Assembly (NCBI GenBank): GCA_030704615.1
Contig: CM060734.1
Span: 12,958,001-13,022,000, forward strand
Direction of reading: 5' to 3'
DNA length: 64,000 nucleotides
From: Takakia lepidozioides
Taxonomy: Eukaryota; Plantae; Bryophyta
The number at the start of each line of letters is the position of its first letter. Position 1 is the first letter of the stretch. Positions 34,180-60,500 of the stretch are shown piece after piece. Below the pieces are notes generated by a model. It worked only from the letters and a program-made list of their open reading frames with translations, made no database searches and was not told where the DNA came from. The translations under genes and the position numbers were made by a program.

Positions 34180-34998
34180 TGTCGCGCGGCTTTTACTCAC
34201 CCATCCCTTCGCTATCCGAGGCGGAAACTCCAAGATAGAAGAGTTGGAAATCTCTAAGTACTCAGCCCGCGCAGAACAATCAGTCATGACCTACAGCTAG
34301 TGTATCATGGGGGTGTTTCCTATGCATTTCCCTTTTTGCATTCATCTTAGCTACCTTTGGCATTGATAATTAAGTATCAGTTTGCTTCATCAATCTATCG
34401 GTTTCCTTCACTCATCCATTCAATCCACAGCTTCTCTCAGATCTCTCTACACAGTGTGATTGTATCGTATAAGTATCAGATTATGATTTATCAGGTATCA
34501 GGCCGAAGTCATTATGTCTCTATTCTGCTCTCCAATATCACTACAGCTTTGCATATAACAAGCATCTACTAATCCTCTTTCCTCCTTCATCGTGCTCTCC
34601 ATCTCTTGCCTCCGATCTCCGCTCCTGCCTGACTCCGAAGTCCCCCCCCTTCATTCCCCGTTTCTCCCTTTTATCCTCCTATCCGCGGTTCTAACCGTTT
34701 CCCTCTCTAACCGTCGTCTGTGAACTAACATGTTCCCTTCACAGGTGTTGTTCCCCACAGTCGTTCCCTATTATCGTGACAGCTGTGTCAAGCGGTGACT
34801 GGCTGTGTTTGGCTGTGTCGGGCTGTGACTGGCTGTGTGGGCTGTGTCTGCTGTGACGACCGTGACGGGCTGTGTGGGCTGTGACGACTGTGACGGGCTG
34901 TGTTGGCTGTGTGCCCTGTGACTGCTGTGACGACTGTGACGGGCTGTGTGGGCTGTGACGACTGTGACGGGCTGTGTTGGCTGTGTGGCCTGTGACTG
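34180..34998 (-). repeat. Partial family B LTR (3' portion), followed by TT and an 18-nt PBS/tRNA-like copy at 34160-34177
   Basis: Near-identical to 41584-~42440. Merges into the post-pol CACAGCC array at ~34999. Confidence 0.9.
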
Positions 34999-35342
34999 GC
35001 TGTGATGCACTGTGGTAAGCTGTGATAGGCTGTGACACGCTGTGGTATGTTGTTATAGGCTGTGTTGCGTCGTGATGGGCTGTGATAGGCTGTGTCACGT
35101 TTGTTTTGCCCACCCTGGTCGTATATGCTGGGCCTAGCAACTAGTGTTCCATACTCCGTTCGTAACACTGGTGCAGCCCGTGACTGCTCTTGCGGTTCAA
35201 CATGCAAATCATGCTGCAGGGGTTTGTCATGGATACCACTGTACCCCTTCAACTTATTTGCATTCACTCTTCCCAGCATTTCTTTGTTAATGGTTTGTAA
35301 CATGGCAGTGTTGTTATCATACATCTTTTGTATGACATAAGG

Positions 35343-38300: not shown

Positions 38301-40974
38301 ATACTCTCTGACTCCTCGAGGTCTTCTTGTAGCAGGTAATCTACTAGATTTCTTTGTGGTAATTTGTATCTCGTGCATCCCATTATGCACAGTTAGTAAC
38401 TGAGAATTCCAGTCATGGAATACCCTGGCCTGTTTCAGCCATGGACGTCCCAATAATAAGGAGTAAGCCTCCATGACTTCATCCATTTTTAATACAGTTA
38501 CTGTGATCATAAAGATCATTTTCTGTATCTGTATCTTAACTCCTCTTATTAATCCCAATGGCTATACACTTCTTTGATCTGCCATTGTTACTGTAAATGG
38601 GGCTGGTTTCATGTTACTTAGACCAAGCTTCTTCCTTAATTGGTCTGTCATGATATTTACTCCAGAACCACCATCTATCAGTACATCAGTTAGTTCTGTG
38701 CTTCCAATTCTCAATTGGATTACTGGCATAGAATCATCAAAGTCCATGACTGGTTCTCGCCCTTCCGGCTTCACATTATAACTGGTCACCTTGCTGTTCA
38801 GGTCTGTGTTTCCTGTCTCTTGGGCAATTCGATTGATTGCCTGATACAGCCTGTGCCTACAATAAGGTGCCACAGCTAATAGCTGTCCAATGGTAATTTC
38901 TGCTTTGGTCTGACATATTACTGCAGCCAAAGTCTCTTCATTACTTTGCATGTCTGCATCTTCTTTTTTCCTTTCTTCCTCACTCCCTTCTTTTTCTCCA
39001 TCCGAATCAGAGGAATCTGCCACAGGAATATCAGTACTCTTTTGCATTTCCCTTATAGTATCTGCCACTTCCTTGTGCAGTTCCTTCTCATCTTTCCAAG
39101 TCTCTTCATCTTCAGGCATATCATTGCCACTTCCAGTCTCATCTTCTTCCTCTTCTACTGGAGGTATTAGTTTGGCTTTACTTCTTGTTACTATCATTGT
39201 ACTTACTTCTGGTACAACACATGGCCTAACCATGTGAGCTGCCACCACTGGGCCCTCATTCACAGGAGCTCTCATCTCATTCTGGTGTCTTATCCAGAAT
39301 GAACAGGCTGCCTTGCGATGTCCTGGCTGATTACAATAGTAACATAGCTCTTCACCATTGGGTCCTCGCCCTTGGTCTGTTCTTGGATTATTTCTATAAT
39401 CCTGATTCCCGGGCTGGTAATTCCCCCTTGGGTTACCCTGATAGTTGCCTCTGGAATTCCCTTGGTAATTCCCTCTTGAATTACCTCTTCCTTCCATGCC
39501 ATTGTTATAACCACCAGACCTACCATAGTGGTCCTGATCATTATTTCTTCTTGGCTGGGGCTGCACCTGATGCACCCTTACTTGCCTAGGTTCTCTTGCA
39601 GCTGTCCTTCTGTTGTAGTAACAATTCTCAGTAGAATGGTTATCCATTTTACAGATAGTACAGTGTTTCTCCTTCATGTGGCATTCTGTGGTGGTATGGC
39701 CTTCATTCTGGCATTTTGCACACCATACACCCTTCCTCCAATGTGTTGCAGCCTCTGTGGCATACTTCTTCAAGATTTCTTCCAATTTTTTTTCATAGTT
39801 ATCCCTCTTCAACTTCTCCTTTCTCTTCAACAGTTTCATGCTTCTTCTGCTTCAGCTGTTGTAAACTTCCATACACTTCATCCTCAGTTTTACTTGTCCT
39901 GAACCTATTTCGAAATGCTGTATTCAAGCCATTCCAGGTTAGGAAATGATTATCAGGGAATCTTGCATACCATTCACTTGCTTTCTTGATAAGTGAACAA
40001 GGAAACAGTCTCATCTTGGCATCATCGCCATTCTCATTGTTCACTATACACATGTGCTCAAATTGGCTAATGTGTACATCGGGATCCCCTTTTCCTGAAT
40101 ATATTGGAAAGGGTGGTTTTGCCCGTGTTGGTTGTAACGCCATCTGTGGCCCTTCCTTCTGCCCACTGGCAGGTGCTGGCACCCTTGCTGGTGCTGGTCC
40201 TTCTGGACCTGTTGTTTTTGTGGTGGATCTTCCACCAAGTGGTGGCCCTTGAGCACTCCTTGCTTCTGGTCCCACGATATTCACAGTATTCCCAGCTTCA
40301 GTTGCACTACTTCCCACACTCCCTGTCCCCCCAGAGCCAGATCCAGGCAGCCCGCCTGATCCCCCTGAGCCGACACCTTCGTTGGCCTGTGATCCAAGTG
40401 CTCCACTTGATCCAGGTCCAACGGGTTGGGATGTCCTGGTTGTAGTCTCAACCTCAGCTGTTGGGTCTACTTCTTCATATTCTTCCTCTTCTAATTTCTT
40501 CTCTCTGTTTTCATCCTCCAAGTTCTGCCCTTGGGTTTCTTCTTCACTCATGTAACTCAACTGTAATGGTGTTGGAGAGTCTGAACTCTCCGTTGGCTCT
40601 GCCACATCCTCTTCTCCTTCTTCATCTTCTGCTTCAGAAACTGGAGTTCCTGCTTTTGGTGTTCCATGCCAACTCTTATCAAAGATTTCTGTCAAGTCTT
40701 TTATCCAAGGATGTACCTCAGATCTTTCTCCTCGTGATTGATCTTCTTCCTGTACCAATTCCCTTAATCTTTCTTGCAAAGAAACAGAAGGAGTGGCATC
40801 CAACTCTAGTTCTTCCGGTATAGGTGATGCACTTTTTGATCTTGATGGTGTGAGAGGTCCAGATGATTCCCCTATGTCTATTCCTCTCTCCCAAAGATAT
40901 GGATAATTAGCTTTCAGATAGCTTTCTCTTTTTGATGAATATCTTTGTCGTCTAGCTTCTCTTTCATCACTCAT
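35343..40974 (-). pseudogene. Family B gag-pol (Gag CCHC, PR, RT, RNase H, integrase) with stops and a 266-bp gag deletion
   Basis: CYYCNQPGHRKAAC, LIDGGSG, FLDDFSVY, HCDAS...YSTTERE, GGHF...CDEC, WGLDFVGP, FISDQG, NGQAE. The deletion corresponds to 63367-63632 of the third copy. Confidence 0.95.
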
Positions 40975-40995
40975 GTCCCATGTCTTTCATTTCTT

Positions 40996-41691
40996 TTAAT
41001 GTGGCAATAACCAAAACTCTCTTCTGTAATATCTCTCGTATATGCCTGGGTTTCTTTCAAGCTTCAATGCACCCTTGGCTATACTTGAAATCTCCGTTAC
41101 CATATAACCATATGGCAAACAAGTCTGAAAAGCTGTTCTTGGTGTGAGTTTGATCCACAAAATATCCTTTGGAATCCAATTCTTTACCAGTACAAGCTCT
41201 TCATGCATATGAGTATAAACATTCACCTTTCTTTCTTCCCAGCCTTCAAACTCTACTCGTTTAATGGATAGCAACGCTATCACATAAACTAATGTTGGTA
41301 ACCAACGTGCTCTTCCTCTACAGGCTACCTGATAAATCTTTATCACTCCTTTCTCCAGACCCCATTCTGGATCAGCATCATGCACTCGTTTAAGAATATT
41401 TTCTTTACATCCGTCTGGCAATTCCAAGAACCTTTGAAAGAATTGTTTGGACAATCTTTCTTCCTTCGTTCCACAGGGAATTTGATTCACTTCAAATTCT
41501 TTAATGGTCCAACCACCATGATCCCACCAGATGCCTGTCACATCTGGTTGTTCATGTCCCAGGTCCCCAGTATGGTCGCCAAATGTCGCGCGGCTTTTAC
41601 TCACCCATCCCTTCGCTATCCGAGGCGGAAACTCCAAGATAGAAGAGTTGGAAATCTCTAAGTACTCAGCCCGCGCAGAACAATCAGTCAT
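40996..41691 (-). CDS. Family B ORF0 (231 aa) starting inside the LTR and reading through the PBS
   Basis: Open from the ATG 108 nt inside the LTR end, through the PBS, to a stop 22 nt before the gag ATG. The LTR-encoded part is codon-conserved in the old copy at 9927-10034. Confidence 0.6.
   Translation of the reverse strand: MTDCSARAEYLEISNSSILEFPPRIAKGWVSKSRATFGDHTGDLGHEQPDVTGIWWDHGGWTIKEFEVNQIPCGTKEERLSKQFFQRFLELPDGCKENILKRVHDADPEWGLEKGVIKIYQVACRGRARWLPTLVYVIALLSIKRVEFEGWEERKVNVYTHMHEELVLVKNWIPKDILWIKLTPRTAFQTCLPYGYMVTEISSIAKGALKLERNPGIYERYYRREFWLLPH
41566..41581 (-). promoter_or_regulatory. Primer-binding site of family B (tRNA-Arg(UCG)-like)
   Basis: TGGCGACCATACTGGG lies 2 nt after the LTR CA and is complementary to a tRNA 3' end ...CCCAGUAUGGUCGCCA, similar to plant tRNA-Arg(UCG). 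Confidence 0.8.
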
Positions 41692-42596
41692 GACCTACAG
41701 CTAGTGTATCATGGGGGTGTTTCATATGCATTTCCCTTTTTGCATTCATCTTAGCTACCTTTGGCATTGATAATTAAGTATCAGTTTGCTTCATCAATCT
41801 ATCGGTTTCCTTCACTCATCCATTCAATCCACGGCTTCTCTCAGATCTCTCTACACAGTGTGATTGTATCGTATAAGTATCAGATTATGATTTATCAGGT
41901 ATCAGGCCGAAGTCATTATGTCTCTATTCTGCTCTCCAATATCACTACAGCTTTGCATATAACAAGCATCTACTAATCCTCTTTCCTCCTTCATTGTGCT
42001 CTCCATCTCTTGCTCCGATCTCCGCTCCTGCCTGACTCCGAAGTCCCCCCCCTTCATTCCCCGTTTCTCCCTTTTATCCTCCTATCCGCGGTTCTAACCG
42101 TTTCCCTCTCTAACCGTCGTCTGTGAACTAACATGTTCCCTTCACAGGTGTTGTTCCCCACAGTCGTTCCCTATTATCGTGACAGCTGTGTCAAGCGGTG
42201 ACTGGCTGTGTTTGGCTGTGTCGGGCTGTGACTGGCTGTGTGGCTGTGCCGGGCTGTGACTGGCTGTGTGGGCTGTGTCTGCTGTGACGACTGTGACGGG
42301 CTGTGTGGGCTGTGACGACTGTGACGGGCTGTGTTGGCTGTGTGTTGGCTGTGTGGCCTGTGACTGCTGTGACGACTGTGACGGGCTGTGTGGGCTGTGA
42401 CGACTGTGACGGGCTGTGTTGGCTGTGTGGCCTGTGACTGCTGTGACGACTGTGACGGGCTGTGTGGGCTATGTAACCCCCCTCTATAGTGTGCTGCTGT
42501 CACCCCTAAGGCTCCTGTTGGTCTCAGTCTGTGCAAAAATTAAGGGTACCCTACAGATCCCGTATAAGTGTCTAAGTCCCCTACAGTCCTCTAACA
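41584..42596 (-). repeat. Family B 5' LTR (1013 bp, TG...CA) with internal CACAGC(C) minisatellite
   Basis: TGTTAGAGG...CCGCGCGACA on the minus strand, followed by the PBS. Confidence 0.95.
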
Positions 42597-42656
42597 TATG
42601 ACACAGCCTGTCACAGCTCAACACAGCCTACTAAAATTACACGAACCATAGAATCA

Positions 42657-45600
42657 GTGACAAGTGGACACATAAAAACTTCAGGAAAATGGATGACGGA
42701 AGAGGAAACGGAAATTACTTTAAAAATAGACACGTGGAGGTCAGGGTGCGACACACAGCAGAGAATGAAGTGCAAGGACAGGTGTCAAAAAGAAAGAGGA
42801 AAAGAACGGCCGTCAAATGGGATGAAAGGCGGGCCCATTAATGAATACGGAAAAAGGGAAACAGATCGAACGGCAAGTACAGAAAAGCTGAATTCATGTC
42901 GCATGTGTGATCCTAGTGGACTATCCAACAGGGAAAGTCCACTAAAGAAGATAAAAGTTAAAATCCAGTCACAGCAAATACAGCCAATAGAAAACCAGAG
43001 AAATGATCAAGAAAATGAAAGAAAATTGGGCGCAAGAGGCGGCGTCGTTCTGAGTAACGGGCGTCTCGACAGGACAGGCCATAAATGCTATAACTTGGAA
43101 ACTATGGAGGAACTAACCAACTATACGCTCGCAATATTACTTACGCAATGGCATAGACACGAAACGACAGAGCAGAGCTTTTCTCTTGAACAATGCTTGC
43201 AAGCCCCGCAGGCTTACAAGAGATTACCCATAGCTTTCTGCGGCAACCATACGTTTCTGCTTTGTGCACTACAGGCATTCCTGCAGTTGTTACAGCCAAA
43301 GCAGTTCTGTGAGTCTAAGATGAAGAGAGTGAGAGGAATGGAGGAAATCAGGGTGAAGAGCACCACAATTCTGCAGAAACAAACAATGGCTACCCCACAG
43401 GCGATAAAGATACTGGAGGAGCTGAGATTGGAAGGATTGCAAAGTCTAGATTGGACACTACACCATAGACAGTACATGTTACAATTTTTGCAGAACTTTG
43501 AGCCAAGGACAGGAACAACAACGGTGAAGGGAGTTGAATTAATGCTTACTCCCCTATACCTCCAGCAATTGTTTCGATTGCCAACAGGTCAGGTGCATGT
43601 GGGGGAACACAGGGCAAGACTACAAATAGGGGACTTATTCCAAGAAGGGAGTTTCTTTAAAACTCAGGGTTATGCTTGTACCAAAGCTGTGTACCCAGGG
43701 TTAAGAGAGATAGGCCAGGTATTGAACGTTCTGTTTGCCCTGAAACAGAACCAACAATATTTGAGCAGATCCTTCACAGAGGAAATACTCAAAGGCCTGA
43801 AGGGACAAGAGGTACAATGGGCGGACATTATGTACAACGCACTAGTAGAGGAGATGAAAAGATTACAAGGTACTACCGCAAAGTCTCCTATCATAGTGTC
43901 TGGCCCAATCATTGCTCAAATAATCCTTAATTCTGGCATACTTAATGCACAAGAAAGGAAGGAAATGGGAGTGTTTGAGCCAGAAACAACTGCAATGGAA
44001 GAGCAAGGCTCTTCACACAGTGAGGGTGGACTAGCAGCACAACCCGAGACTAAGATGCAGAGAAGGGGAAAGACTGTAGTGGCGGATCCACTGGCTTCAC
44101 GGATTCCGCATGATAATGTTTCCCAAGCTCATGACCAGGAAGGGGCACAGCAGCACAAAAGAATGTTATTACTGGAAGCAGGACCTTCAGAGAGGGAGGA
44201 GGAAGTTACTTCTGCATCACAGCCAACACAGCCACTTGAACGACTTGTCACAAGGTCACAAGTTATCCATGCAGCTCAACCCGAAATAATTGATTTGGAA
44301 AGTGAAGGGATAGAGATTCCAACTACAGAGCAGATAGTGGCAGAAATAGAGAAAGGGGACCTTCTCTATGAATATTCTGGTCTGGTCAAGGAGACAGAAA
44401 TCCCAGAGGTGCAACAGTTGCCCAAGGGAAATCCTGAGGTGCATATAATGCACACACCTGTGTTGGAGGTACCACAGGCGGAAGGTCATGACACTGTAAC
44501 ACCAGTCATAGATGAAGTAGTTCAGGAAGAAAATCCGGTGGGACAATGGCCTGAATGGTTAGTGAGACATCATACTGTTGAAGATCGGGAGGAACAGCAG
44601 CAACCTCACCATGATGACCCTCAACAGGCAATGCTGATGAGTTCCATAGGCAGGACACTTAATTTGTTGGGGACTTATGTCAAATCCCATGTTCCAATTA
44701 CCCAATTGACAGCCTTGAAAAGAGGAACTCAGGAAGGAGTTTGAGGCTCGACTTGCCACTGAGTGTGCAAACAAGGTCGATGAAGAGGTCACTCTCAAGA
44801 TGAAGCAGGACTTGGGCAATACAGAAATGGCTTTGCAGTTGGCCAAGCAACAACTGATTGAGGCAAACCTCACGCAAGACCAGTTGCACGAAGCACATAA
44901 GCAACAGCTATACCAAATGCAGGTGCAGCATGAAAGCAAGTTGCAAGAACTGAATGCACTACATACGGAGTTGCAGACAGTGCATAACAGGATGGAGATA
45001 CAATGTGCTACAATTACAACTATGCTTGACCAATCAACAAAAGAAATAAACAGTCAAGCGGAAAAATGTACGAAGGCAGAAGAAGAGAATGTTGAGCAAA
45101 TGAAGCTCATTGTCGATATGAAGAATACAATCTGTCGCCATGAAGATACTTTCAAGCAATACAGGCAGAGGGAAGCTGATCAAGAGAAACACATCGTGGA
45201 GTTGCAACAAACCATCGTGGCCAATAGAAATGAAATCGCGGTCAGTAACAAGGCTTCGAAGGAAGCCAATAATCTACTTGCTGCCTATGCGCAATTGGTT
45301 GAGCCACAGGCGAAGCGCATGGAGGCTTTACAACAGCAGTTGGAATTGTACAAGCTAAGAGAAGAGCAAACTCTCAGGGGAACCACAAGCAGCTTGGTGG
45401 ATAACAGCCTTATGCAGGTCTGGTTAGCACAAGGGCCAGTAGAGGGCAAAAGCCCACGGAAACTCACCCAAAGCGAGATGAATGAGCTCAGACTGCAGGT
45501 GCAGAACATTGCCACAACTACTATAGACAATGTCTATAGTAGGATAGCAGAGTTACAAGAGGATGTAGACGGACTCCAGACTCAAGTGGAAGACCTCACT

Positions 45601-46872
45601 TCAAACATCGACCAAAGAGTCTATATCCCTCAAGAACAGCTAATGGCTTCTTATTTGCAAGCCAGAACTCTGGCTTTTCAGTCTTCACAGGAGGTGCAGG
45701 AAATGCCAATGATACAGGAGCCAGTACCACCACCACCACAACAGGTCACTGTACCAATAGCTGAACCTGGGGTTACTACAACCACACCACAGCCACCACA
45801 GCCGGAGGTATGGGGCAATGCCGCTTTTAACCCACCTAAAACTCCAGCTGCAAGGGAGTACAGCAGGGCTATGCTTATGCCCTTCAACCAAATTCCCATC
45901 ATGTTGGATTTGGCTTGGAAAGAATTTAGTCCTCCGTAGTCATTCGCACATTACTACCAAATCATGCGTATTTGGCTGCCAGTGGCAACTAGGACTAAAG
46001 TTCTTCCAAACAATCGACATATTGAAGATCATCACTTTGCACAATACTGGCACGAGGCAGGTACCATGTTGAGGGAATTGGTTGCTTTCCAGGTTGTACA
46101 TGGACTCATTTATACCAAGACCAAGGAGATAGCAAGTATTGTCATGGGGTGCGGGCTATACTACGCTGCTTGTTTTCTGGTACGTTACCACATTGAGCAA
46201 CAAAAGATGCAAACACGCTTTCAAAGTTACTCCAGTGGAGATCATTGGGTATTACCTTCGGTGCCACCTCATATATACCTATATGACCCAAAAGTTATGA
46301 TGCAGAAGGATTCTCAAATTCGTTCATGATTTCAAGCAGCCTGCAACCAATTGTCAACACAGAAATTCGGACTTGATGACATTTTCTATAAGGGACATGT
46401 GGCATGGAAGTACTTGCACGCTGCACCAGTAATTGGTACCCCACTCATCTGGACAGACAAGGAGCTCAGTGCCTACACCAATTTTGCTGTTCAGCGGTTA
46501 CACCAAGTTGTAAAATACAAACTTCCAGACATGGTAGGACAGCATTGTATGCCCCAGATGATTCCACAAAAAGTTCGAAAATTAAAACACCTGAGAGGCG
46601 ATGAGGATTCTGATACAATTGTTTCTTCACACAATTCTTTTGACATGGGAGAAGACTATGCAATTCAGATGGAAGAGAAGAAACAAAGGGGATCTCCTAT
46701 GCCGGAAAGATTACCTCGATATCAACCTCCAGAAGGCCTCACTTATCCAGGTAGTGATCAACCATCTCCATCAACCAGAGACAGACCTCGGGCTCGTACA
46801 CACAGCCCACCACGAAACTCTCAACGTCAACAAGGTGCTCACTCACAAAGGTTTGCTACTCGGAAACAGTAA
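42657..46872 (+). pseudogene. Family B 3' extra ORF (~1400 codons; Athila/SIRE extra-ORF-like segment plus long coiled coil), one frameshift and two stops
   Basis: Colinear ORFs 42657-44744, 44800-45939, 45964-46329 and 46351-46872 end just before the PPT. Homologous segments occur at 7245-9290 and 57551-58470. Confidence 0.8.
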
Positions 46873-46893
46873 ACCGTGAGGACACGGCTTTTT

Positions 46894-47828
46894 GGGGGGA
46901 AGGGGTAATGTTAGAGGACTGTAGGGGACTTAGACACTTATACGGGATCTGTAGGGTACCCTTAATTTTTGCACAGACTGAGACCAACAGGAGCCTTAGG
47001 GGTGACAGCAGCGCACTATAGAGGGGGGTTACATAGCCCACACAGCCCGTCACAGTCGTCACAGCAGTCACAGGCCACACAGCCAACACAGCCCGTCACA
47101 GTCGTCACAGCCCACACAGCCCGTCACAGTCGTCACAGCCCACACAGCCAGTCACAGCCCGGCACAGCCACACAGCCAGTCACAGCCCGACACAGCCAAA
47201 CACAGCCAGTCACCGCTTGACACAACTGTCACGATAATAGGGAACGACTGTGGGGAACAACACCTGTGAAGGGAACATGTTAGTTCACAGACGACGGTTA
47301 GAGAGGGAAACGGTTAGAACCGCGGATAGGAGGATAAAAGGGAGAAACGGGGAATGAAGGGGGGGGACTTCGGAGTCAGGCAGGAGCGGAGATCGGAGGC
47401 AAGAGATGGAGAGCACGATGAAGGAGGAAAGAGGATTAGTAGATGCTTGTTATATGCAAAGCTGTAGTGATATTGGAGAGCAGAATAGAGACATAATGAC
47501 TTCGGCCTGATACCTGATAAATCATAATCTGATACTTATACGATACAATCACACTGTGTAGAGAGATCTGAGAGAAGCTGTGGATTGAATGGATGAGTGA
47601 AGGAAACCGATAGATTGATGAAGCAAACTGATACTTAATTATCAATGCCAAAGGTAGCTAAGATGAATGCAAAAAGGGAAATGCATAGGAAACACCCCCA
47701 TGATACACTAGCTGTAGGTCATGACTGATTGTTCTGCGCGGGCTGAGTACTTAGAGATTTCCAACTCTTCTATCTTGGAGTTTCCGCCTCGGATAGCGAA
47801 GGGATGGGTGAGTAAAAGCCGCGCGACA
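46894..47828 (+). repeat. Family B PPT (46894-46905) and 3' LTR (46909-47828, 920 bp)
   Basis: GGGGGGAAGGGG-taa-TGTTAGAGG...GCGCGACA. Shorter minisatellite than the 5' LTR. Confidence 0.95.
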
Positions 47829-48269
47829 GTAGTGGCAGAGGGATCCTCGGATTTGAGGGTCAAGACTGCCACGGCTGCGCCCTGGCAAGCTGCAGCTGCC
47901 AAGTTGACGGAGCTGCCAGCTAGGCCAGCCTTTGAGCGCGCCATGGTGACATCTGGAGTTGTCTTGTTAGACAACCAGGATGGCATTTTCTCTTTGAGTG
48001 GACCGGCAGGCAAGAAGTACCGGCCACTGCGGGTCTTGTTGGACTCGGGAGCTAAGCCACTGATGTTGGGTAGGGCTGCTATTGCAGGTTTGGGCCTCAT
48101 GGAGGCGGATATGGAGCCTTGTCCTTTCCAGATACAGACATCTCTGGGAGGATCAGAGCAGGCTCGGGGCATGACTCAGTTGGCCATTAGACTGCAGCCG
48201 GATCACCCTACAGATGGCTCAGTGATGCGAGCCAAGGCCATTGTGACAGACGCGGTCTCTTATGATGTC
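47829..48269 (+). repeat. 441-bp direct duplication of element A protease region (copy of 33720-34160)
   Basis: Constant offset of 14109 bp. The only difference I noticed is C/T at 34154/48263. Confidence 0.95.
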
Positions 48270-48739
48270 CTCGTGGGTGGGGCAGTGTTATACCCCATGG
48301 GCTTCACCCTGGACTTTTGGGAGGAGTCAGCATTCTAACAGGCCCCTGATGGCAGTACAGCAGTCAGGGGATGGTCAATCGTGCACAGCTCCCTGTGACT
48401 TCATTGGGGGTTTGCGGCTACCCAACGGGGCAAGAATGCCAACCCTAGCCACCTTTACAGCTGCGTTAGTTGGCCTGAGAGTTGCTGGGAAGGCAATGCC
48501 CATGCAGAGGAATATTGTCACCCACCTCCAGCAGAGCAGGATGATATGCATGGTATGGTGGAGTGGCCTGCCTGGTTGCTCCACACTCCATTGTGGGGTA
48601 ACGCAGGATTTGCAGCAGTTGCTGATGCGACGGGTGCACAAGCCTGTGTAGAGGCTTTGTACCGTCAGGGAGAGGAGAGGTGGGTATTGCACCAGGAGCA
48701 CCTCAGTTGTCACCATTGGATACCACACACTATTATTGT

Positions 48740-49740
48740 GTGGCAGTATCCGGATAAAGGCATTTGCCTCTGGACTTGTTTGGCGGGATCAGCACCGTAT
48801 TGGCTGCTGGTTTACAGGCATGTGTGCGGGTAATGCGTTACCTGATGTGTTTGAGAGGATGAGACTGCACGACGGCGTCTTACTGCGTGTTGCTCAGTTG
48901 GTACAAAACAGCATTACCTGCTTTGTTGCTAGTGTCTGCAGTTCGTGGATACCAACAAGCCTGCCAGCAGACATTTCGTTGCTGGGGGCGCCGGATTTGT
49001 AGCAGGTTGGCTCCATTGATCTTGTAGTGGCAGGTTGGCCCCTGCCAAGGCATTCATTAGCCGGGCATGACAATGGATTGCGAGACTCGAGAACGGAACT
49101 GTCTTTTTGGGAGATGGTGCGGATTTTGCGCCACTTGCAGCTTCATCAAGCTGTATCGCCAGCATACATCTTGTAGAATGTGCAACTGATGGGCGATTCT
49201 CGGGCCAGGGTGATGGCCAGTGTGCATCAAGTCCGGTCGTGGTTGGGTTGACAGTGCTGCTGGATGCATCTGCAGTGGGATCACGGCTCATCGTCCACGG
49301 CTATGGTAGACTAACTTGATTCCACCCCACCCGCACTGCCAAGCGTGCATTTGATGGGTGTGCAGAGCGGCCAACACCCTCATAGTGGACACATTTTGGA
49401 CATAGGGAGGCAGTTCTCAACGTGTGAGACTGAGACCGTTCGCCTTTGGCAGTGGTCAAGAGGGTGGGTCAACCACGAGCCGCATTACCTACACTGCTCA
49501 GCTTCCCAGGATCCCATGCTTTTCGGGATGGTGGACCTGGCCTCCTATGGGATGCTCAGTTGCAACAGTTAGTGGAGCCTAATGCCGACGAGCGGCGCGG
49601 CTATGGTTTTCACTGGGACCACGCGGCGGTGCTTCTCTCTTTCTGAGGCATCACGTCGTCAGGTGTTGGGGCAAGCAATGGATCTCAATTGCTTGACCTG
49701 GATTATCAGCTTGGCTATGGCTGAGCAACGTAGAGTGCGG
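48740..49740 (+). pseudogene. DNA (cytosine-5)-methyltransferase domain, DNMT3-like, within the element A polyprotein (frameshifted in this assembly)
   Basis: Motif I DLFGGI (48773-48790). Motif IV DLVVAGWP/CQG (49018-49051), followed by GLRDSRT..FWEMVRIL. Motif VI YIL*NV (49165-49182). Motif VIII LDASAVGS/AHRPRLW*TNL (to 49318). Motifs IX-X EPNADER..AM.F and SEASRRQVLGQAMD (49654-49683). All in canonical order. Confidence 0.9.
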
Positions 49741-50149
49741 AGTGCACTTCCCTTGACGGTCTCTCTGCCTACCGAGACGGTACAACACAGGCGCGAGTGG
49801 GGGGCGAGCGGTGAGGACCACGGGGTGTAGACATCCATGGCACACGTTGGAGGTGCTCGAGGTTCAGAGGGAGTTGGCAGCCAAGCCAGCTGTGATGGAT
49901 GAGGTTGGGAATTCTTTTCGGATGAGGAGGTTCTCAATGATGAGAATGATGGGGCAGGATGAGGCCTTTCATTGACTGAGCCGGAAGGGAGTACTGCTCA
50001 AGAGGTTCAAGCATAGCAACCACGGGACGCGTCCTCTACCTCTAAGCCCACTGGACTTAAGGTTGCAGTTACGGAGGATAATTGGGAGCCTGACATTGGA
50101 CCCATTGTCCCGGAGGAGAGAGACGACGTATACGGCGGTTCCTGAGGGC

Positions 50150-53015
50150 TTACAAGAAATTGCTTTGCCTTCAGTTTGAAGGACTTGGGAGCACTGAAGG
50201 GTCAAGAGATCCGTATTAAGTTGTCACTGACACGCCAATCTTTCGGAGACCCTATAGATACAGTGACATGGAGAGGTCTTTGATTCAGATGAGGACTCAA
50301 GATCTCTGGAGGCAGGTTTGGTGGAGCTCTCTGTGGAGAGTATGCTTCAGCCACAGTGATGCCAGCCAGAAGGATGTCTATGGCAATTGGACGGAGAGAC
50401 GTAGTTGCGGTGATTACCGGCCCTGTAAATCGTCAGACCAAGTCCGATAGGTATGCCATGTGGTGCCGACACCAGAGGAGATCTTTTATGCCATTGGGCA
50501 TTCCAAGGTCTTTAGCACGTTGGATTTACGATCCGGATATCACCAGTCGCCGATCGAGGAGTCGGATAGCAAAAGACGGCATTCTGGGGGATCAATGAGC
50601 ACGGGAAAGATTGCCTATACCAGTGGCGGTTCTTACCATTTGGGCTTAAAAACGCTCCCGCTGATTTTCAAAGAGTCATGGACAGGATTCTAGCAGGGGT
50701 GTGGAGTTTGCTCGGTGCTACATAGATGACAATCATCATCTTTAGTGCTACGGTGGAGGAGCATGAGAGACACCTTCAGGGGGTATTTGAGCGCTTGAGG
50801 GCGCACGGATTGAATTACATCGGGAAAGTGCAAGTTTTCCACAACCAGATTGAGTATCTGGGTCACATGATATATCCTAGAGGATTGGGGTACAGCAGAC
50901 TGATAGAGTCCATTGCACAGGTTTCCACGCCCCACGGATGTGAGCCGAGTTTCGAGCTTTCATGGGGTTTAGCAAACTATTACAGACGGTTTGGTTAGGG
51001 ATTTAGTGCCATTGCAAAGGTCTAACTCCTAACAAGCTGACCAAGGGGACCAGGAGTGGCAGGGGATAATGAGCAAGAACAAGCTTTTCAAGAGCTCAAG
51101 GCGAGGTTGACCTCGACGCCCATCTTGAGACGACCTATCAGGGGGCGTCCTTTTCAGCTGCATACAGATTGGAGCATGTTGGTGGGGCTTGGAGCGATGC
51201 TCACACATGGGATGATAGGGAAAGAGTTTCGTAGTGGCTATGCTAGCCGCTCAAACAATGTTGCAGAGTCTAAGTATAGCTCATATGAGGGAGAAATGCT
51301 TAGCTGCATTGTGGGCCGTGGCACACTTCAGGTGCTATCTATACGGCAATCTCTTCAACCCTTGTCACGGATCACCAACCACTCAGTGGTTGATAGAGTC
51401 ACAATCTTACGGGGAAGCTTGCACGGTGGGCACTCATCCTTCAAGAGTATGACTTTCAGGTGGTTGCATCGACCGGGTTTGGTCAATCGCAATGCAGATG
51501 GGTTGAGTCGCAATCCATGCACGAGCCAGCAGGATGACACTGGAGCTCTGTGGCATGGTGAGACGGACTAGGAGATGGTGCCCGGATGGCATGCATCTGC
51601 ATTTCTTTTCTGTGTATCTTGGCAGCGGAAGGCCAGGTTGGACCTGCAACAGGGATGACTGTAGATCAGTGTCTGAGGACCCTGAGCCAGCATGAGCAAG
51701 GTGGCGCCAAAGAATATACATAAGGATTCAGTTGTGTTTGGACTACCTCCGCACTAGAGACACTGCAGCCACTGTGACTGCCAAGGAGAGGGATCGGATC
51801 CTACACACAAGCCAAGAGGTTCAAGTGGGAGGGACACACCTGCTCCGAGTGTGGTAGGATGGTCGAGTGAGGATTGTGCCTCACCCACACAGCTGGCACG
51901 GTTAGTGTGCATGCCCATGAGGAGTTGGGGCATTTGGGGTGCGACGCACTCATAGTCTACTGCAGGGGGCAGTATTGGTGGCGTGGTATGCACACAGAGG
52001 TGCCCAATTTTGTGGCTAGGTGCATGGTGTGTGACAGGGTGCGTGCTTCATCAACGCCCTACTCCACAATTGCACCCTCTTCTTTTCGATCATGGGATTT
52101 GGGCTACAGGTGGAGTCTTGACTTCGCAGGGCCGTTGCCACTGACCATGCGCCACAAACAGTACGTGTTGGTGATGGTGGAGCACTTCTCCAAGTGGATT
52201 GATTGGTTCCATTGCCTGATAAGGCTAGTGAGGGAGCTGCGTATGCATTCTTGGATTGTGTGCTTAGCGCGATTCGGTGCTCCAGCTGAGGTACTCACGG
52301 ACCAAGGGAGAGAGTTCTTGGGGAGTTTCAGGCTTTGTGTGACAGGCCTTGATATACCACCGCACCACTTCTCGGATCATCCTGAGGCCGATGGCTTGGC
52401 AGAGAGAGTTGGTTTTCAGACAGTAAGAGGGGTTTGCGCAAGTATGGCTTGCAGAGGGACACCTAGAGATTTGGACCTTCAGTTACCCTGGTTAGCCATG
52501 GGCTACAGGTTCAGCAAGCAAGCATCACTTGCCTCCTTTCTCACCAAATTTCTTCTCTTTGGCCGAGAGCCGCATTTGCCTACATCCATTCGTAGAGAAG
52601 CTACTACAGTTCTTAACCTTGACGATCCGGACGTGTGGGGCACGTGCATGTGAGCAGCGTGCAGAGTTGTTCAAGAGAGTCATGCCCATGGCTTTCGGGA
52701 ACCTTGCCATTGCACAACACCGTGATACGTTGAGGTATGCTACCATACGTGGTGGGGGCTATCGTCCTGGGGTTCGGAGATTCAACCCTGGTGACTATGT
52801 CTATCTGCAGCAAACTGCTCCTACGACCTTGGATGTGATTTGCAGGACGTGTTATTTTGAGGGTTCGAGAGGTCTTGCCCTCAGGCGTCTTGGTCTTGGA
52901 GGGTCGGGATGGCATAACTTGGGAGGACCATGTGCGTAATTGTGCGCCATGTCACCTTCCAAATGTCGATGGCAGGATAGACCCAAACTTGGCAGTGGTA
53001 TCTGTAGGTTTGAGG
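50150..53015 (+). pseudogene. Element A RT - RNase H - integrase (many indels)
   Basis: DRYAM/PTPEEIF, LDLRSGYHQ, PFGLKNAPADFQR, YIDD (50719-50730), LHTDWS, YSSYEGE, NADGLSR, HEELGH...CMVC, WSLDFAGP, LTDQGREF, DGLAER. Confidence 0.93.
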
Positions 53016-53158
53016 TGCATGTTGTGTGGGTCTGCTAGAGGGGCAGCCCCCATACTGGTGTGTGATCGATGCTCTAGAGGTTGCATATGGGATGCTTGAC
53101 TCCACCTCTTGAGATGGTTCCGGATGGGGATTGGTTATGTCCACATTGCATTGGATAG
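53016..53158 (+). CDS. PHD finger at the integrase C-terminus of element A
   Basis: CMLCGSARGAAPILVCDRCSRG[W]HMGCLTPPLEMVPDGDWLCPHC, a C4HC3 finger once one missing G at ~53083 is restored. Confidence 0.9.
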
Positions 53159-53406
53159 TGGGAGTGGATACAACCATGGAAGGCTAACAAAAACGCAAGG
53201 CCCAGCTACTAGGAGACCTTGAACACACGAGGTCCTGGCTCAAGTTCACAGATTGCAAGACGGCGACTAACGATGGGGCTACTCTTGTACCCGGCCTCTT
53301 GGTCTATAGGGTTTGAGTGCAATAGGGACAGTGATAGAGGACTTAGTACGGCTGTGGCTATTACATCTTGTAGCTATCTGGAGGTAGAGGGACCTATCCA
53401 CCAGCT

Positions 53407-53947
53407 AGGGGGGCGATTGTGGCAGACTACTTTATTGTGCATATATGTGTGGTGTGGTTTGGACAGCGATGTAGTTGTGTAGCGATATGTATGCGCACGA
53501 CAGCTGTCAAGTTAAATAAGCACAGTGTGAAAACAACTAGAATAAAGCTAGTTATTTATATTTAACACTTGGATTTAGGTCAAGTGTTAAATCAGGTGTC
53601 AAGTTTAGTTTGACACCTGAACCGTCTTATCTTCACGAGAGCGGCAGTCGCGCAGCTCATCTCTCTCGAGTTGAGCCTGCGCGACCGAGCTCCTTCATGC
53701 GTTTAGATCTGAGTGTGCTTATGATGGGAGTGTAGGTTGTTGTGGGGTGGAGTCCCCATAGCGTGGGGTGCCCTTGGCTCGACTTCTATTTTAAAGAGTG
53801 ATAGCGATGGATTTCATATTTCTTGTGTTGAGAGTGTGTGTCTTTTTTAGCTTGTTTATCATTGTGGCAGACTACTTTATTGTGCATATATGTGTGGTGT
53901 GGTTTGGACAGCGATGTAGTTGTGTAGCGATATGTATGCGCACGACA
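53407..53947 (+). repeat. Element A 3' end: PPT (AGGGGGG, 53407-53413), X1 (53418-53502), GC, Y2 (53505-53861), T, X2 (53863-53947)
   Basis: X1 and X2 are identical 85-bp TG...CA units. Y2 matches the 5' terminal repeat. Confidence 0.92.
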
Positions 53948-56180
53948 AGGGATTGATCTTCCACACCTGGTGGGGGTACAAAGAGCTAGAAGAAGCACCC
54001 CCATTATCCTAGCCTGGAGGCCCTCCCACCTCGCTGGACTACTCAGCTTGCTGCTGGGCCTGGGTTCAGCTCTATGCAAATGTTCTCAAGAGAAACGACT
54101 CCAGCTTCTTTACATTCTCAACTCCTTGTGGGCTTCAAGGGACATCATCTGCCGGAGGACAGAGGATTCATGCGTCTTCAAGCCTCTCTTCTCCCATTGT
54201 TGCTGACTTTCCTTCCTCCTGGCCCTCCCTTCTCGACAGGGACGAAGACATTAATTGGAAGCACTGCAAGAATAGGAATTCTTAAATGAAGGCTCGCCTT
54301 AATTTTGAGCCCCTACGTAGGAAGAAATAGTGCTTGGCTGGGTTTTTCAGTGCTTGGTCTATTAGGTGTAGATGCTCTTGGTAGCCTCTGTATGTTTAGG
54401 CCTTGGACATTTTGGACTCCGGTTCTTTGCTAGGCTGTTTAATCAGAGAACCAGCTGTGTTTCTGGCTGCCCATTGTGGCTGCTCTGGGAGGCTCCCCAC
54501 GATTGTATTTATGGCCCTGTCGAGGTATTTTTTCCTCGCTTCTTTAACTTGAGTAATAGGGCCTCCATTCACCTTTTGTTTTAGAAATAAAAATAAAAAT
54601 AGACACAATACCCGCCGCGGAACACTTGGTTATCATGACTATTGTTAACCCCTAAACGACGATGCGATCCCAAATCGAGTCGCGTAAGTCTTCTGTCACG
54701 ATCCAACGTTTATGGATGACAGTGGATGGAAGTGATTCCTAAAGATAAAGAACGGGTTAGGGAGAAGCACATGTGGGAATTTACAACGCCCTAAAATAAT
54801 AAAAGCTCTGCTCCCTAGAATTTTTCAAAGTGCCAAGGGTATGGAAATCCAGAGCTGACCTGCCCACGTGAGCAATCTTTGAAAATAACCTCTAGGGCTC
54901 AAACTTTATCAAAATGCCAATTTTTTTGAACAAGGTGCTATGTATGTTAGTGTGCACTTACTTACTAGAGGAATTAGAAAACTAATATAACCTCAATGGT
55001 GTATTTCGGAAAGAAGCCAAACCATGAAAATTTTACATACAAAGCAGCCTATCTCAGATTTTGGAATCTCGGTATGCTTTTTAGGGGAGAGAGTCGCTTA
55101 GGTGCGATTATGGAGGGCATATGCCTCAGGAAATTCAACTCGATTTTATTTTTTTACTTTTATTTTTTTTCGACACTTGAATTTAGTGGTCAAACCATTT
55201 TTCCATGCAATCTTAGAATATATTTACAAATTGGGGCAGATTATTTGTTATAATCTCCCAAATGCAATGGTCAAATTGCCTACACTTTTAATAGGACATT
55301 GATGTAGTAGATATGCACATAAGTATAAGGTTCATCCCCATGGATTATTGGGGGTAAGAAGTTACACTCTTATCCACGAGGTATGTTTTAGTGGGCCCAC
55401 CACAATCAGTCTCGTCCTTTAAGGGTTAACACTTAACACGTGGGTAGGTGCGGTGGAAATCATATATCATTTTTTTTGTTTTTAATTATAAATTTGAAGC
55501 ACTGATTTCTGGCGCTATGGGTTTATTCCACTTCCTCTACCAGACTTAGTTCTATCAGGGGGATGTAGTCGATAGATGGGCCTGGCAGAGAAGACGGAAT
55601 CTCACGAAAAGGACGCAACAGACTAAGACATCCACAAAACCTTTATAAGCACACTCAAGCACACCGTTACACCAAGAGCGCACACACGTAAGATGAAATG
55701 CACCACCTTTACTGCCACGGCAGTGTAGCTTAAATAGTATTAGGTCATAATCTAATCCTTGTGCCGCTATGGCACTTACATACGGGCCAGCCAAATGTCC
55801 TTCTAGCATAGCCATAGAAAGAAGCCAGATCACCCAGTCCCATCCTAAATCTAATCCTAAACTAGCTGTTAGAATAAGACATCATATAATAAAGCCGAGT
55901 TGTTGCCAGCTCATCCTTATGCACAAAACGTAAGTTCATCCAGACTACATCCTGGTTCCGTCCATCCCTAAATCATCTGGAGTGCATCCTCCCTCCATCC
56001 ATCCAAGTCGAGAAAACAGGTGAGGATGAATCCCAGCTCCACATATGTGAAGCATGCTGGGGCCTCTAGAAATTGTGAGCTCCTCCGAGCGAAGGGCTCA
56101 GGAAGAACAAAATTGAATCTAGCCTAAACAAACTACACACCCAGTACACGAGGGATGAAAAAACCTAGGGGAAGAAAACC

Positions 56181-57070: not shown

Positions 57071-57553
57071 TGCCCTTGCAGTAAACTATGAGTGTGTCGC
57101 ACCCCAAAATGCCCCAACTCCTCATGGGCATGCCGCACTAACCATGCACACTGTGTTGGGTGAGGCACAATCCTCACACGACCATCCTCCCATACTCGGG
57201 GCAGCTGTGTCCCCTCCCACTTGAACCTCTTGGCTCATTGCAAGATCCGATCCCTCTCCTTGGCAGTCACAGTGGTTGTCGTGTCTCCACTGCGGAGATA
57301 GTCCAACAGAGCTGAATCCTTATGTATATCTCTGGCGCCATCTGGCTCGTCACTGGCCTTAGGATCCTCAGACACTCCGTCTACAGTCATCCCTGTTGTA
57401 GGTCCAATCTGGCCTGTCGCTGCCAAGATACACAAAAATGCATATGCGTATCATCCCGGCACCATCTCCTCGTCCGTCTCACCACGCCACCAAACTCCAG
57501 TGTCATCATGCTGGCTCGTGCTGGCTGCAACTCAATCCATCCGCATCCCGATT
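57071..57553 (-). mobile_element. Second family A fragment (RNase H / integrase linker)
   Basis: Reverse-complement homolog of ~51485-51970 (DIHKDS..LDYLR.GDT..TVTAKERDRIL). Confidence 0.9.
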
Positions 57554-60500
57554 CAACTCCCTTCACCGTTGTTGTTCCTGTCTTTGGCTCAAAGTTCTGC
57601 AAAAATTGTAACATGTACTGTCTATGGTGTAATGTCCAATCTATGCTTTGCAATCCTTGCAATCTCAGCTCCTCCAGTGGGGTAGCAATCGTTTGTTTCT
57701 GCAGAATTGTGGTGCTCTTCACCTTGATTTCCTCCATTCCTCTCACTCTCTTCATTTTAGACTCACAGAACTGTTTTGGCTGTAACAACTGCATAAATGC
57801 CTGTAGTGCACAAAGCATAAACGTATGGTTGCCACAGAAAGCTATGGGTAATTTCTTGTAAGCTTGCGGGGCTTGCAAGCATCGCTCAAGAGAAAAGCTC
57901 CGCTCTGTTCTTTCGTGTCTATGCTGCGTAAGTAATATTGCGAGCATATAATCTGTTAGTTCCTCCATAGTTTCCAAGCTATAGCATTGATGGTCTGTCC
58001 CGTCGAGACGCCCGTTACTCAGAACGACGCCGCCTCTTGCGCTCAATTTCCCTCCATTTTCTTGATCCTTTCTCTGGTTTTCTATTGGCTGTATCCGCTG
58101 TGACTGGATTTTAGATTTTATTTTCTTTAGTGGACTTTCCCTGCTGGATAGTCCACTAGGATCACACATGTGACAAGAATTTTGCTTTTCTGTACTTGCC
58201 GTTCGTTCCGTTTCCCTTTTTCCGTATTCATTAATGAGCCCGCCTTTCATCCCTTTTGACGGCCGTTCTTGTCCTCTTTCTTTATGACACCTGTTCTTGC
58301 ACTTCCTTCTCAGCTGTGTGTCGCGCCCTGACTTCCACGTGTCTATTTTTAAACTAGTTTCCGTTTTTTCTTCCATCAGCCATTTTCCTGAAGTTATTAT
58401 GCGTCCACCTGTCACTGATTCTATGGATCGTGTAACCCTAGTAGGCTGTGTTGAGCTGTGACAGGCTGTGTCATACTGGGGTACACTGTGATAGGCTGTG
58501 ATGCACTGTGGTAAGCTGTGATAGGCTGTGACACGCCGTGCTGGGCTGTGATAGGCTGTGTCACGTCGTGATGGGCTGTGATAGGCTGTGCTTTGCCTTG
58601 ATGGGCTGTGATAGGCCGTGGTCCGCCTTGACGGGCTGTGATAGGCTGTGTCACGCTTGTTTTGCCCGCCCTGATCATATATGCTCGGCCTAGCGACAAG
58701 TGCTCCATACTCCGTTCGTAACACTGGTGCAGCCCTTGACTGCTCTTGCGTTTCAACATGCAAATCATGCTGTAATGGTTTGTCATGGATACCACTGTAC
58801 CCCTTCAACTTATTGGCATTGACTCTTCCCAGCATTTCTTTGTTAATGGTTTGTAACATGGCGGTGTTGTTATCATACATCTTTTGTATGACATAAGGTC
58901 CTTTCCATGGTGATTTAAGCTTAGAAGCTTTAATCTTTCCCTTTTTCTGCAACCATAGAACCAAATCTCCCGTCTTAAAAGTTTTTAACTTGCCCTCATC
59001 AAACTGTTCCTTCCTCTTCATCTGAATTCTGGTCATATTATCAGCTGCATCAGCACGTACTTCTTCCACATGGTATAATTCATGTTTCCTGACCTTAATG
59101 GAATCTTGCAATTCCATTCTCTTTCCCCACTCCGTTCTCATGGTAGGTAACAGGAATTCCACTGGAAGTAAAGCTTCCATACCATAAACTAATTGGAATG
59201 GTGTATACTTAGTGGTGATTTTATAGGAAGTCCTGTATGACCACAAAGCTGTCAGCAGCTTTGTATCCCAATCCGTTCTGTTTGCATTGACTATCTTAGC
59301 CAAGATAGTGCATAGTATTTTGTTGGTAGCCTCTGCCTGCCCATTACCCTGTGGGTAATATGTTGTACTCTTTCTATGTACAATCATGAACTCTTTAGTC
59401 AACAACTCAATGGTCTCATTCATGAAGTGACTTCCCTGATCACTGATAAATTCTAAGGGACAACCAAATCGTGTAAGTATGTTCTCGTACAGGAACCTTG
59501 CTGTGGACTTGGCTGTATTGTCCCTCAAAGCTTTAGCTTCCACCCACTTCGTAGTATAATCAGTGGCTGTAATTATGTACCTGCTCCGTGTATTCTTGGC
59601 TGGTGGGTTAATTGGTCCAACAAAGTCTAGTCCCCATTTCTGAAATGGTTCCGTAGGCATTGTAGGATGCAAGGCCATCCTCCCAGATCTCTGCAAAGGT
59701 CCTAGCCTCTGACATTCATCACAACTCTGACAATACTCGTGTACATCTTTGAACAAAGTAGGCCACCAGTAACCTGCGAGTAGTATCTTCCTACTTGTAG
59801 TCTCTTCTCCAAATGACCTCCAGCCACTCCTTTATGAACTTCCTCCAAAACTTTATTTACTTCATGGTGGTACAAGCATCGTTTTAGTACTCCATCAGGT
59901 CCTAGCTTATACATTCTGCTTCCTACCATAGTATAAGGTAAAGCTTTGATAGCGATTCTCTTTCTCTGCTCCTTACCATAACTAGGTGGGCACTGACCAT
60001 GAGCAAGGTAGTATCTGATTGGCCACTGCCAATCTAACCAGTCATCTGCACTTCCCTGCACCTCCACTGCAAAGAGACTCGCATCTGGTAATTGATCATC
60101 TATTCCTGTGGCTGGTTCTCCTGTTGATAACCGTGACAAATGATCCGCCACTAGATGCAGTCTCCCAGGCTTGTAAACAACCTCGAACTCAAACTCGTGC
60201 AAGATTATCAACCATCTTGCTATTCTTCCGCTTATCAGAGGTTTGTTTACCAGGTATATCAGAGCCTGGTGATCCACATAGAACATAAACTTTTTGCCCA
60301 ACAGGTAATGCCTGAATTTCTTCACTGCATAGATCATTGCCATGCTTCTTTTTCCGTTGTGCTATAGTTCCTTTCAGCACTGTTCATCAACCGGCTAGCA
60401 TAGTACACAGATGAATCTATATTTCCTGTAACATTCTGGGCTAACACCGCTCCCAATGCTTCTCCTGATGCATCGCAGTGAACATGAAATACTACATGCC

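Follow-up and report, generated by a model that had tools for sequence, protein, structure and literature searches.

A broken Ty3/Gypsy element of Takakia lepidozioides that pairs an integrase-terminal PHD finger with a DNMT3-like methyltransferase

Ty3/Gypsy retrotransposons carrying an intronless, non-rearranged DNMT3-like domain are known from the streptophyte Klebsormidium nitens, in which KnitGypsy-Dnmt3 (streptophyte 'Gypsy-DNMT3') encodes the DNA methyltransferase (DNMT) in its Pol ORF and, according to the legend of Fig. 4c, possesses DIRS-like A-coding-B-A-B repeats (PMC5890265). A role of this enzyme in methylation of the element's cDNA was proposed by de Mendoza et al., while its expression in yeast gave no methylation, a result regarded as inconclusive by its authors (PMC5890265). 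The EpiLTRs likewise unite a cytosine DNMT and a chromatin reader within one LTR retrotransposon, and the reader-plus-writer idea is already in print for them (bioRxiv 10.64898/2026.05.21.726589). Furthermore, PHD fingers have been called 'widespread' in retrotransposons (PMC6673714). Gypsy polyproteins with a PHD finger include Gypsy-7a_cRei and other Chlamydomonas elements (PMC9940879, PMC8557442; REM1 is cited there); new insertions of these PHD-bearing elements show a 2.6-fold intergenic bias, and targeting was proposed in the same papers. Chromoviruses (REXdb, PMC6317226; MAGGY) also place a histone-reader module at the C-terminal end of their integrase.

Here, we analyzed a window of 64,000 nucleotides from Takakia lepidozioides, the window being this whole stretch of DNA. 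An earlier note had proposed that a complete C4HC3 PHD finger of the unmodified-H3K4-reader class ends the pol frame of an element which also encodes a DNMT, and that both domains form a self-contained epigenetic module. The reading that we favor, and hold to be fairly probable, is that the locus holds a broken member of a green-lineage Ty3/Gypsy family, in which the PHD finger would tether the integrase complex to H3 unmethylated at K4, while the DNMT would act separately, on cDNA of the element itself. Two add-ons independent of each other are a better description than the presumed module.

Layout and decay of the element

The element spans 27,485–53,947 of the window, between two copies of the 4-bp target duplication AGGG, and its domains follow the order Gag-PR-DNMT3-(stop)-RT-RH-IN-PHD. 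It thus has the PR-RT-RH-IN order and the DDE integrase of Ty3/Gypsy elements, and the claim that a PHD finger and a DNMT reside in one element was borne out, with the DNMT located between protease and RT. The internal features are the following:

27,857–31,685, plus strand: long 5′ leader, with a P-protein tail, a poly(A) run and a 256-codon frame inside
31,686–34,160, plus strand: gag, zinc knuckle and first part of the protease, with one stop and zero frameshifts
34,161–47,828, no strand assigned: nested block (13.7 kb) of other Gypsy elements, not of this family
47,829–48,269, plus strand: second copy of the protease region 33,720–34,160 (441 bp, 99.8%), flanking the nested block
48,770–49,722, plus strand: DNMT3-like C5 methyltransferase domain between protease and RT, broken by 13 frameshifts and 4 stops
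50,014–50,022, plus strand: conserved in-frame stop TAG CAA CCA between DNMT and RT, in a CAR-YYA-type context; likely read-through signal
50,158–51,019, plus strand: reverse transcriptase, broken (frameshift-aware alignment)
51,068–51,541, plus strand: RNase H, broken (Pfam scan and frameshift-aware alignment)
51,831–52,940, plus strand: integrase, broken, with H2C2, core, GPY/F-type tail and beta-rich C-terminal domain
53,016–53,158, plus strand: C4HC3 PHD finger at the integrase end, with a one-base frameshift at ~53,082–53,084 in this copy

The same domain order was found in an unbroken related locus (L020), where a Pfam scan at E ≤ 0.05 returned no ADD, PWWP or chromodomain (PF00385). Named relatives come from Marchantia, Calypogeia and Sphagnum, with 67–81% identity over the integrase tail. 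The gag-protease part matches that of a Marchantia relative at 64% over 249 residues, and the corresponding leader of related loci has a length of ~1.1–1.6 kb.

Within the leader, positions 28,140–28,256 encode the C-terminus of an acidic protein of the 60S ribosome (PF00428, 35.4 bits), and a poly(A) run is situated at ~30,150–30,180; this P tail represents either a captured host mRNA or a separate retrocopy. The 256-codon open frame upstream of gag (30,402–31,172) gave no Pfam hit and no match in related loci. The nested block (34,161–47,828) contains another Gypsy family with inverted outer LTRs, and its outer end keeps an 18-base tRNA-type primer site (34,162–34,179). Together with the 441-bp duplication, this block resembles the product of an aberrant, one-ended integration, or else a joint of the assembly. 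Beyond the element, a 480-bp piece of the RH-IN linker of this family (57,073–57,553, minus strand; 85% to 51,485–51,968) forms an in-frame fusion with the end of a long integrase frame from an unrelated Gypsy element (57,387–59,831), whose tail also carries 10-bp tandem repeats.

As it stands, this copy cannot encode the PHD or pol protein. A single pol frame, as assumed before, is not present: frameshift-aware alignment over DNMT, RT, RH, IN and PHD revealed 52 frameshifts and 6 stops within ~1,200 codons, compared with 0–2 frameshifts per domain in six comparison loci. The region 48,270–53,200 contains about one frameshift per 70 bases and few stops, while gag is clean and the terminal repeats are 98.6–100% alike. 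All of the 12 indel places listed in a comparison with reads were located at runs of equal letters, 8 of them at runs of at least 3 (background 23%). The best sequencing run contains just 0.68 of the words, yet it shows the right junction of the insertion without a difference. Based on the position of the indels at equal-letter runs and on this word content, part of the pol damage is probably an error of the long-read consensus assembly.

The PHD finger and its predicted binding partner

The region 53,016–53,149 encodes the full set of eight C4HC3 zinc ligands, but splits them over two frames. Cys1–Cys4 (at 53,016, 53,025, 53,061 and 53,070; pattern C-x2-C-x11-C-x2-C) are located in the integrase-tail frame, which stops at ~53,097. 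The His and Cys5–Cys7 (53,084–53,149; pattern H-x2-C...W-x-C-x2-C) are read in a different frame, which is closed by the stop TAG at 53,156–53,158. In the Pfam scan, the 86-aa first part with Cys1–Cys4 gave no hit, and the second half of the finger alone matched PF00628 with 25.8 bits (E 1.1e-5), above the cut-off of 24 bits. Of the complete finger claimed to end the pol frame, the full set of ligands and the PF00628 assignment were therefore upheld, while its continuity in one frame was not, as far as this copy is concerned.

Judging from related copies, the frameshift is private to this copy and the finger is in frame in the family. Contigs of other copies from the same organism contain an extra letter at 53,082 in four of four runs (36, 4, 3 and 2 contigs). 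Integrase tail and PHD finger share one frame at 49 of 78 related loci; at the remaining ones, a contig end cuts through, the locus is broken or there is no hit. In addition, PF00628 is listed for 67 of 80 relatives retrieved with an integrase tail containing only half the finger as the query. Although the inability of this copy to encode protein would suit a neutral passenger or a chance motif in a dead copy, such an origin is refuted for the family by the Pfam match above cut-off, the family-wide conservation and a dN/dS well below 1, and we give it practically no credence. The presence of a PHD finger and a DNMT in this element is not a matter of chance.

The top solved matches to the finger are those of CHD4, PHF12, PHF21A, KDM5 PHD1, ATXR5, KAT6A, DPF3, BAZ2 and UHRF1, all of which read H3 tails without K4 methylation, while no finger of ING, BPTF, TAF3 or Pygo appeared among the best 60 solved matches listed. 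In principle, K4me0 readers lack the cage Trp two places before the His and possess an Asp after Cys3, a P-x-G-x-W pocket and an acid before Cys1. Among 111 fingers, the place two before the His is occupied by Gly in 99 and by Trp in 2, and the cage Trp is thus absent. The Asp after Cys3 is found in 102 of the 111, and the Pro and Gly of the pocket are retained in 92 and 81, respectively. The closest solved members and these residue features agree with the proposed class of unmodified-H3K4 readers, suggesting that the finger likely binds the free N-terminus of H3. A sharp rejection of K4 methylation is less certain, since the acidic residue just before Cys1, which grips K4 in BHC80/AIRE-type fingers, is present in 9 of 47 bryophyte-type fingers and in 39 of 64 from a wider set, and since 94 of 111 fingers retain, three positions ahead of Cys3, a Met that is typical of K4me3 cages. 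The ATXR5 finger likewise lacks the acid before Cys1 in the alignment.

The absence of the K4-gripping acid from 38 of the 47 bryophyte-type fingers would also be in line with a finger that has no histone role and serves the integrase C-terminus structurally or by binding DNA or protein. A conserved N-C-x-P-C-H motif just ahead of the finger, which may be a further metal site, points in the same direction. We consider such a role quite improbable, since most fingers retain both the pocket for the H3 N-terminus and the Asp after Cys3, and the closest solved relatives are histone readers. Moreover, an AlphaFold model of a relative's integrase tail predicts the finger as a separate small domain past a low-confidence linker; this model is weak overall (pLDDT 65.5, pTM 0.34; 79–93 for the beta domain and finger) and was used for domain boundaries only. 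In the favored tethering of the integrase complex, the H3-bound finger would bias insertion away from K4-methylated promoters.

The methyltransferase, the conserved stop and the pairing of both domains

Sequence comparison identifies the DNMT of the element as DNMT3-like, non-rearranged and intronless. In the window, a 57-aa piece of this domain matches PF00145 with 22.4 bits (cut-off 22 bits), a stop at 49,174 interrupts the ENV motif, and PCQG is encoded in a neighbouring frame. For the DNMT of a Marchantia relative, which is 67% to the window copy, the best 25 PDB matches are all DNMT3A/B/C, and motifs I, IV (PC), VI (ENV) and VIII are aligned with the DNMT3 structures. Host DNMT3 enzymes use a K4me0 reader, and the earlier note had drawn an analogy with their ADD domain. 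However, no ADD or PWWP hit precedes the catalytic domain at E ≤ 0.05, also in the unbroken copy, and the finger is situated ~1,000 residues from the DNMT, past RT, RH and IN, and this analogy is therefore not supported. As a possible trace of self-methylation, CpG depletion was compared between the element (0.47–0.54) and its neighbours (0.25–0.34), and the element is not more depleted. This test has little power to discriminate, because all transposons are methylated by the host and the active SymbioDIRS-Dnmt3 likewise shows no CpG depletion.

In the bryophyte-type families, an in-frame stop is located ~130–160 bases ahead of RT, namely TAG CAA CCA in the window (50,014), TAG/TAA CAA CCY in a large peat-bog family and TAG CAA TCA in L020. 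A TAR-CAA-YY stop was found at 32 of 38 loci with an RT start, representing three distinct sequence families; of the six loci without it, three represent the RT of an adjacent element, while an insertion is present in two and a frameshift in one. Database proteins either terminate after the DNMT, as those of Marchantia and the metagenomes do, or begin just before RT. The stop is not universal, since a single uninterrupted frame encodes DNMT, RT and IN-PHD in relatives from algae (P0095, P0132 and others). The sequence CAR YYA after UAG constitutes the read-through signal of tobacco mosaic virus, with ~10% efficiency (PMC2754532), and the stop at 50,014 is likely a leaky-type signal as well. 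Ribosomes would mostly stop at this TAG, whereby Gag-PR-DNMT would be made in excess and RT-RH-IN-PHD by read-through only. Through the excess of Gag-PR-DNMT, the particle in which the cDNA is made would receive many DNMT molecules. The protease may release IN-PHD as a protein of its own, by analogy with chromodomain integrases, whose release by the protease is established for chromoviruses. In this scheme, the DNMT would accompany the particle-forming protein, whereas the finger would belong to the integrase, an arrangement that argues against an ADD-like link and for cDNA methylation.

A search with the integrase core only yielded 86 long proteins, 81 of which were counted after five distant hits had been dropped. 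In these polyproteins, co-occurrence of both domains across related elements was confirmed: 72 contain a PHD finger, 76 a DNMT and 68 both. The hosts of the pairing range from liverworts and peat moss to chlorophytes, and those named include Haematococcus, Pleodorina, Volvox, Gonium, Tetraselmis, Pseudoscourfieldia and Closterium; none of the relatives found in the protein searches was labelled as Klebsormidium. At loci covering the respective place, some of which are the same insertion, the PHD finger was present at 60 of 62 loci, the DNMT at 34 of 39 and the two together at 25 of 28, and the loci without one of them are deleted or truncated copies. A chromodomain (PF00385), the hallmark of chromoviruses, is listed for only one of the 86 relatives.

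The position of the PHD finger is always after IN, while 17 proteins carry the DNMT ahead of RT and 56 have it between RH and IN. These two placements correspond to two clades, in the RT-RH-IN tree as well as in that of the DNMT (FastTree, with the chimeric P0109 left out of the FastTree tree, and an unfinished IQ-TREE run; both are quick searches with weak deep branches). Furthermore, P0115 and P0120 extend from protease through PHD without a DNMT, and P0181 and P0182 of Closterium possess the DNMT without the PHD finger. Between families, dN/dS amounts to 0.10–0.40 for the PHD finger (42–48 codons) and 0.25–0.32 for the DNMT, in pairs with computable dS, the others being saturated. Between decayed copies of one family, the values are 0.34–1.24. 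Both domains are under purifying selection between families, and their pairing is old and maintained. In view of the single losses of either domain and the two places of the DNMT, the sequences indicate one inheritance by descent of separate add-ons, not repeated assembly.

A functional link would also explain why 68 of 81 polyproteins, from chlorophytes as well as streptophytes, kept both domains over a very long time. In a coupled, ADD-like module, the finger would read unmethylated H3K4 and bring or switch on the DNMT3 at the insertion site, and the element would silence or disguise itself and its flanks. The DNMT, lacking ADD and PWWP, has no targeting domain of its own; in the 56 relatives with the DNMT directly before the integrase, it could stay joined to IN-PHD, and the K4me0 reader of host DNMT3 provides a general precedent. 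Nevertheless, we regard such coupling as unlikely. In the branch of the window family, the conserved stop as well as RT, RH and IN separate both domains; across the relatives, the DNMT moved while the PHD finger stayed, either domain was lost singly, and the co-occurrence goes back to one inheritance. In addition, the PHD finger is a common add-on of algal transposons without a listed DNMT (PMC9940879, PMC8557442). The label of a self-contained module was therefore not supported, and a finger and a DNMT that act apart are more probable.

Some further observations were made on the relatives. P0097, P0099, P0075, P0079 and other chlorophyte-type proteins continue for 300–500 residues past the PHD finger, with a short beta-rich stretch followed by a methyltransferase-like-looking domain (D-P-W-A-G-T-G, N-D-L-N) that has no Pfam annotation. 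In L076 (11,202–13,903) and L077 (4,599–6,512), a second, diverged DNMT-carrying element lies head-on beside the first. Marchantia gene models named "PHD-domain" or "cytosine methyltransferase" (P0003–P0005, P0081–P0090) are pieces of this retrotransposon family.

Element ends and comparison with known systems

The repeats of the window element are arranged as A-int-B-A-B, with the following features:

27,481–27,484, plus strand: left 4-bp target-site duplication AGGG, equal to the letters after B2 (53,948–53,951)
27,485–27,840, plus strand: terminal repeat A1, starting with TGTCA, 98.6% identical to A2; probable distal part of a split LTR
27,841–27,856, plus strand: primer-binding-site-like stretch, complementary to A positions ~150–166; likely self-priming
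53,407–53,416, plus strand: polypurine tract (PPT) abutting B1; the same tract precedes B1 in related loci
53,417–53,502, plus strand: repeat B1, ending with CGACA, 100% identical to B2
53,499–53,508, no strand assigned: palindromic B-A junction GACA-GC-TGTC (right end, 2 letters, left end); putative internal attachment site
53,505–53,861, plus strand: repeat A2, 98.6% identical to A1
53,862–53,947, plus strand: repeat B2, right end of the element, 100% identical to B1
53,948–53,951, plus strand: right 4-bp target-site duplication AGGG, matching 27,481–27,484

Instead of two whole LTRs at the ends, a split LTR was found, and B precedes A at none of 17 left ends. The ends are of the TG...CA type (TGTCA...CGACA), and the 4-bp duplication is exact in 9 of 11 complete elements and has one mismatch in the other two. 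Comparison of the window (27,485–27,856; 53,407–53,951) with L003, L014, L018, L023, L028, L033, L042 and L053 revealed three end forms, A-int-B-A-B, A-int-B and B-A-inverted A. Of the 39 distinct right ends, 25 terminate with B, 12 show B-A-B, and 2 consist of B-A, the primer site and the inverted first half of A. The palindrome GACA-GC-TGTC, or a one- or two-letter variant, is present in all 19 B-A junctions examined, while the A-B joint corresponds to a blunt join of two predicted cDNA ends, once with extra letters including the end of the purine tract. In L034, a possible solo A-B had no clear ends. Troyka was rejected as a source of the odd ends, being an animal element with CG ends and 3-bp duplications.

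Since the polypurine tract precedes B1 and the A-complementary stretch follows A1, B+A behaves as one LTR. The duplex between the primer site on the A1 side and the middle of A has an energy of −27.1 kcal/mol, a value reached by 2 of 200 controls. In L042, a different yet again complementary pair was found, with 0 of 200 controls as low; the duplex is weak in six decayed loci, and thus significant in just two of eight left ends. Reverse transcription would then be ordinary, with a self-primed minus strand and a PPT-primed plus strand yielding an LTR composed of B+A. The three end forms with the internal palindrome and the exact 4-bp duplications (9 of 11) point to integration from circles, and we infer that the DDE integrase acts on a cDNA that is circular or extended at its ends, cutting it at the internal palindrome. 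By cutting inside the LTR at the B-A palindrome, the integrase would produce A-int-B-A-B from a two-LTR circle or an end-joined equivalent. The A-int-B form could also result from recombination between B copies. The mirror form A-B-A-int-B, as predicted by a plain two-LTR circle, was found at none of the 17 left ends, which speaks against a circle of this kind.

The element ends also bear on what the finger might find. It is conceivable, though doubtful in our view, that the PHD finger helps the integrase to find its own internal attachment site on a nuclear circle with new, unmodified histones. The element ends coincide with the internal LTR palindrome in all three forms, the finger has the features of an unmodified-tail reader, and no target-sequence rule is evident, as the NCGN target preference (Phygy, REXdb) was seen at only 1 of 39 distinct right flanks. 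However, such a role would presuppose chromatinised circles, the end layout comes from bryophyte-type loci only, whereas the PHD finger spans the whole clade, and the analogy with chromoviruses and CopiaMBD favors target tethering (PMC6673714).

As a more tentative extension, the clade may have left the standard route: a Gag-level DNMT3 ahead of a leaky stop would methylate the particle cDNA, and after circularisation a PHD-tethered DDE integrase would cut the LTR palindrome, placing pre-methylated copies with DIRS-like split ends on K4-unmethylated chromatin. If this were true, DIRS-like split ends would be made by a retroviral-type enzyme, and new copies would be methylated on arrival.

In comparison with KnitGypsy-Dnmt3, the window element shares the A-coding-B-A-B repeats, and its DNMT is in the same frame as well, but followed by the conserved stop before RT (PMC5890265). 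This stop makes the element a variant of KnitGypsy-Dnmt3/Gypsy-DNMT3 and not a member, while algal relatives such as P0095 do have the DNMT in one ORF with RT and RNase H. The window family, in contrast to KnitGypsy-Dnmt3, occurs in land plants. The text of PMC5890265 does not contain the term 'PHD', although its Fig. 4c may show one, and target duplications, the internal palindrome and A-int-B forms were not found in that description. The EpiLTRs of Cymbomonas and Euglena combine a chromodomain, DAM and a DNMT4-sister enzyme (bioRxiv 10.64898/2026.05.21.726589), whereas the window family combines a PHD finger with a DNMT3-type enzyme, and Pfam scans of this element gave no DAM. The Gypsy-7a_cRei group, likened here by description alone, has no DNMT among its listed domains and possesses ordinary LTRs. 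Compared with chromoviruses, the element carries a PHD finger in place of the chromodomain, and a different mark is expected. With DIRS/PAT/Ngaro elements, including SymbioDIRS-Dnmt3, it shares the A-coding-B-A-B layout, a conserved B-A junction, a methyltransferase passenger and a likely circular intermediate. It differs from them by the DDE integrase, the 4-bp duplications and the PBS-like and PPT signals; Pfam scans gave no tyrosine recombinase and an rve integrase instead.

DNMT3-bearing Gypsy elements, retrotransposon PHD fingers and reader-plus-DNMT elements (EpiLTRs) have thus already been described separately. In the literature covered, with most subscription papers, Repbase, figure panels and preprint supplements outside its scope, we found no description of a PHD finger with a DNMT3 in bryophyte Gypsy elements, of the stop or of the internal attachment site. 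The pairing of PHD finger and DNMT is in itself a modest extension of known biology. New here are the conserved stop and the presumed integrase cutting inside the LTR at the palindrome, and it is this stop and this internal attachment site that a specialist would not expect.
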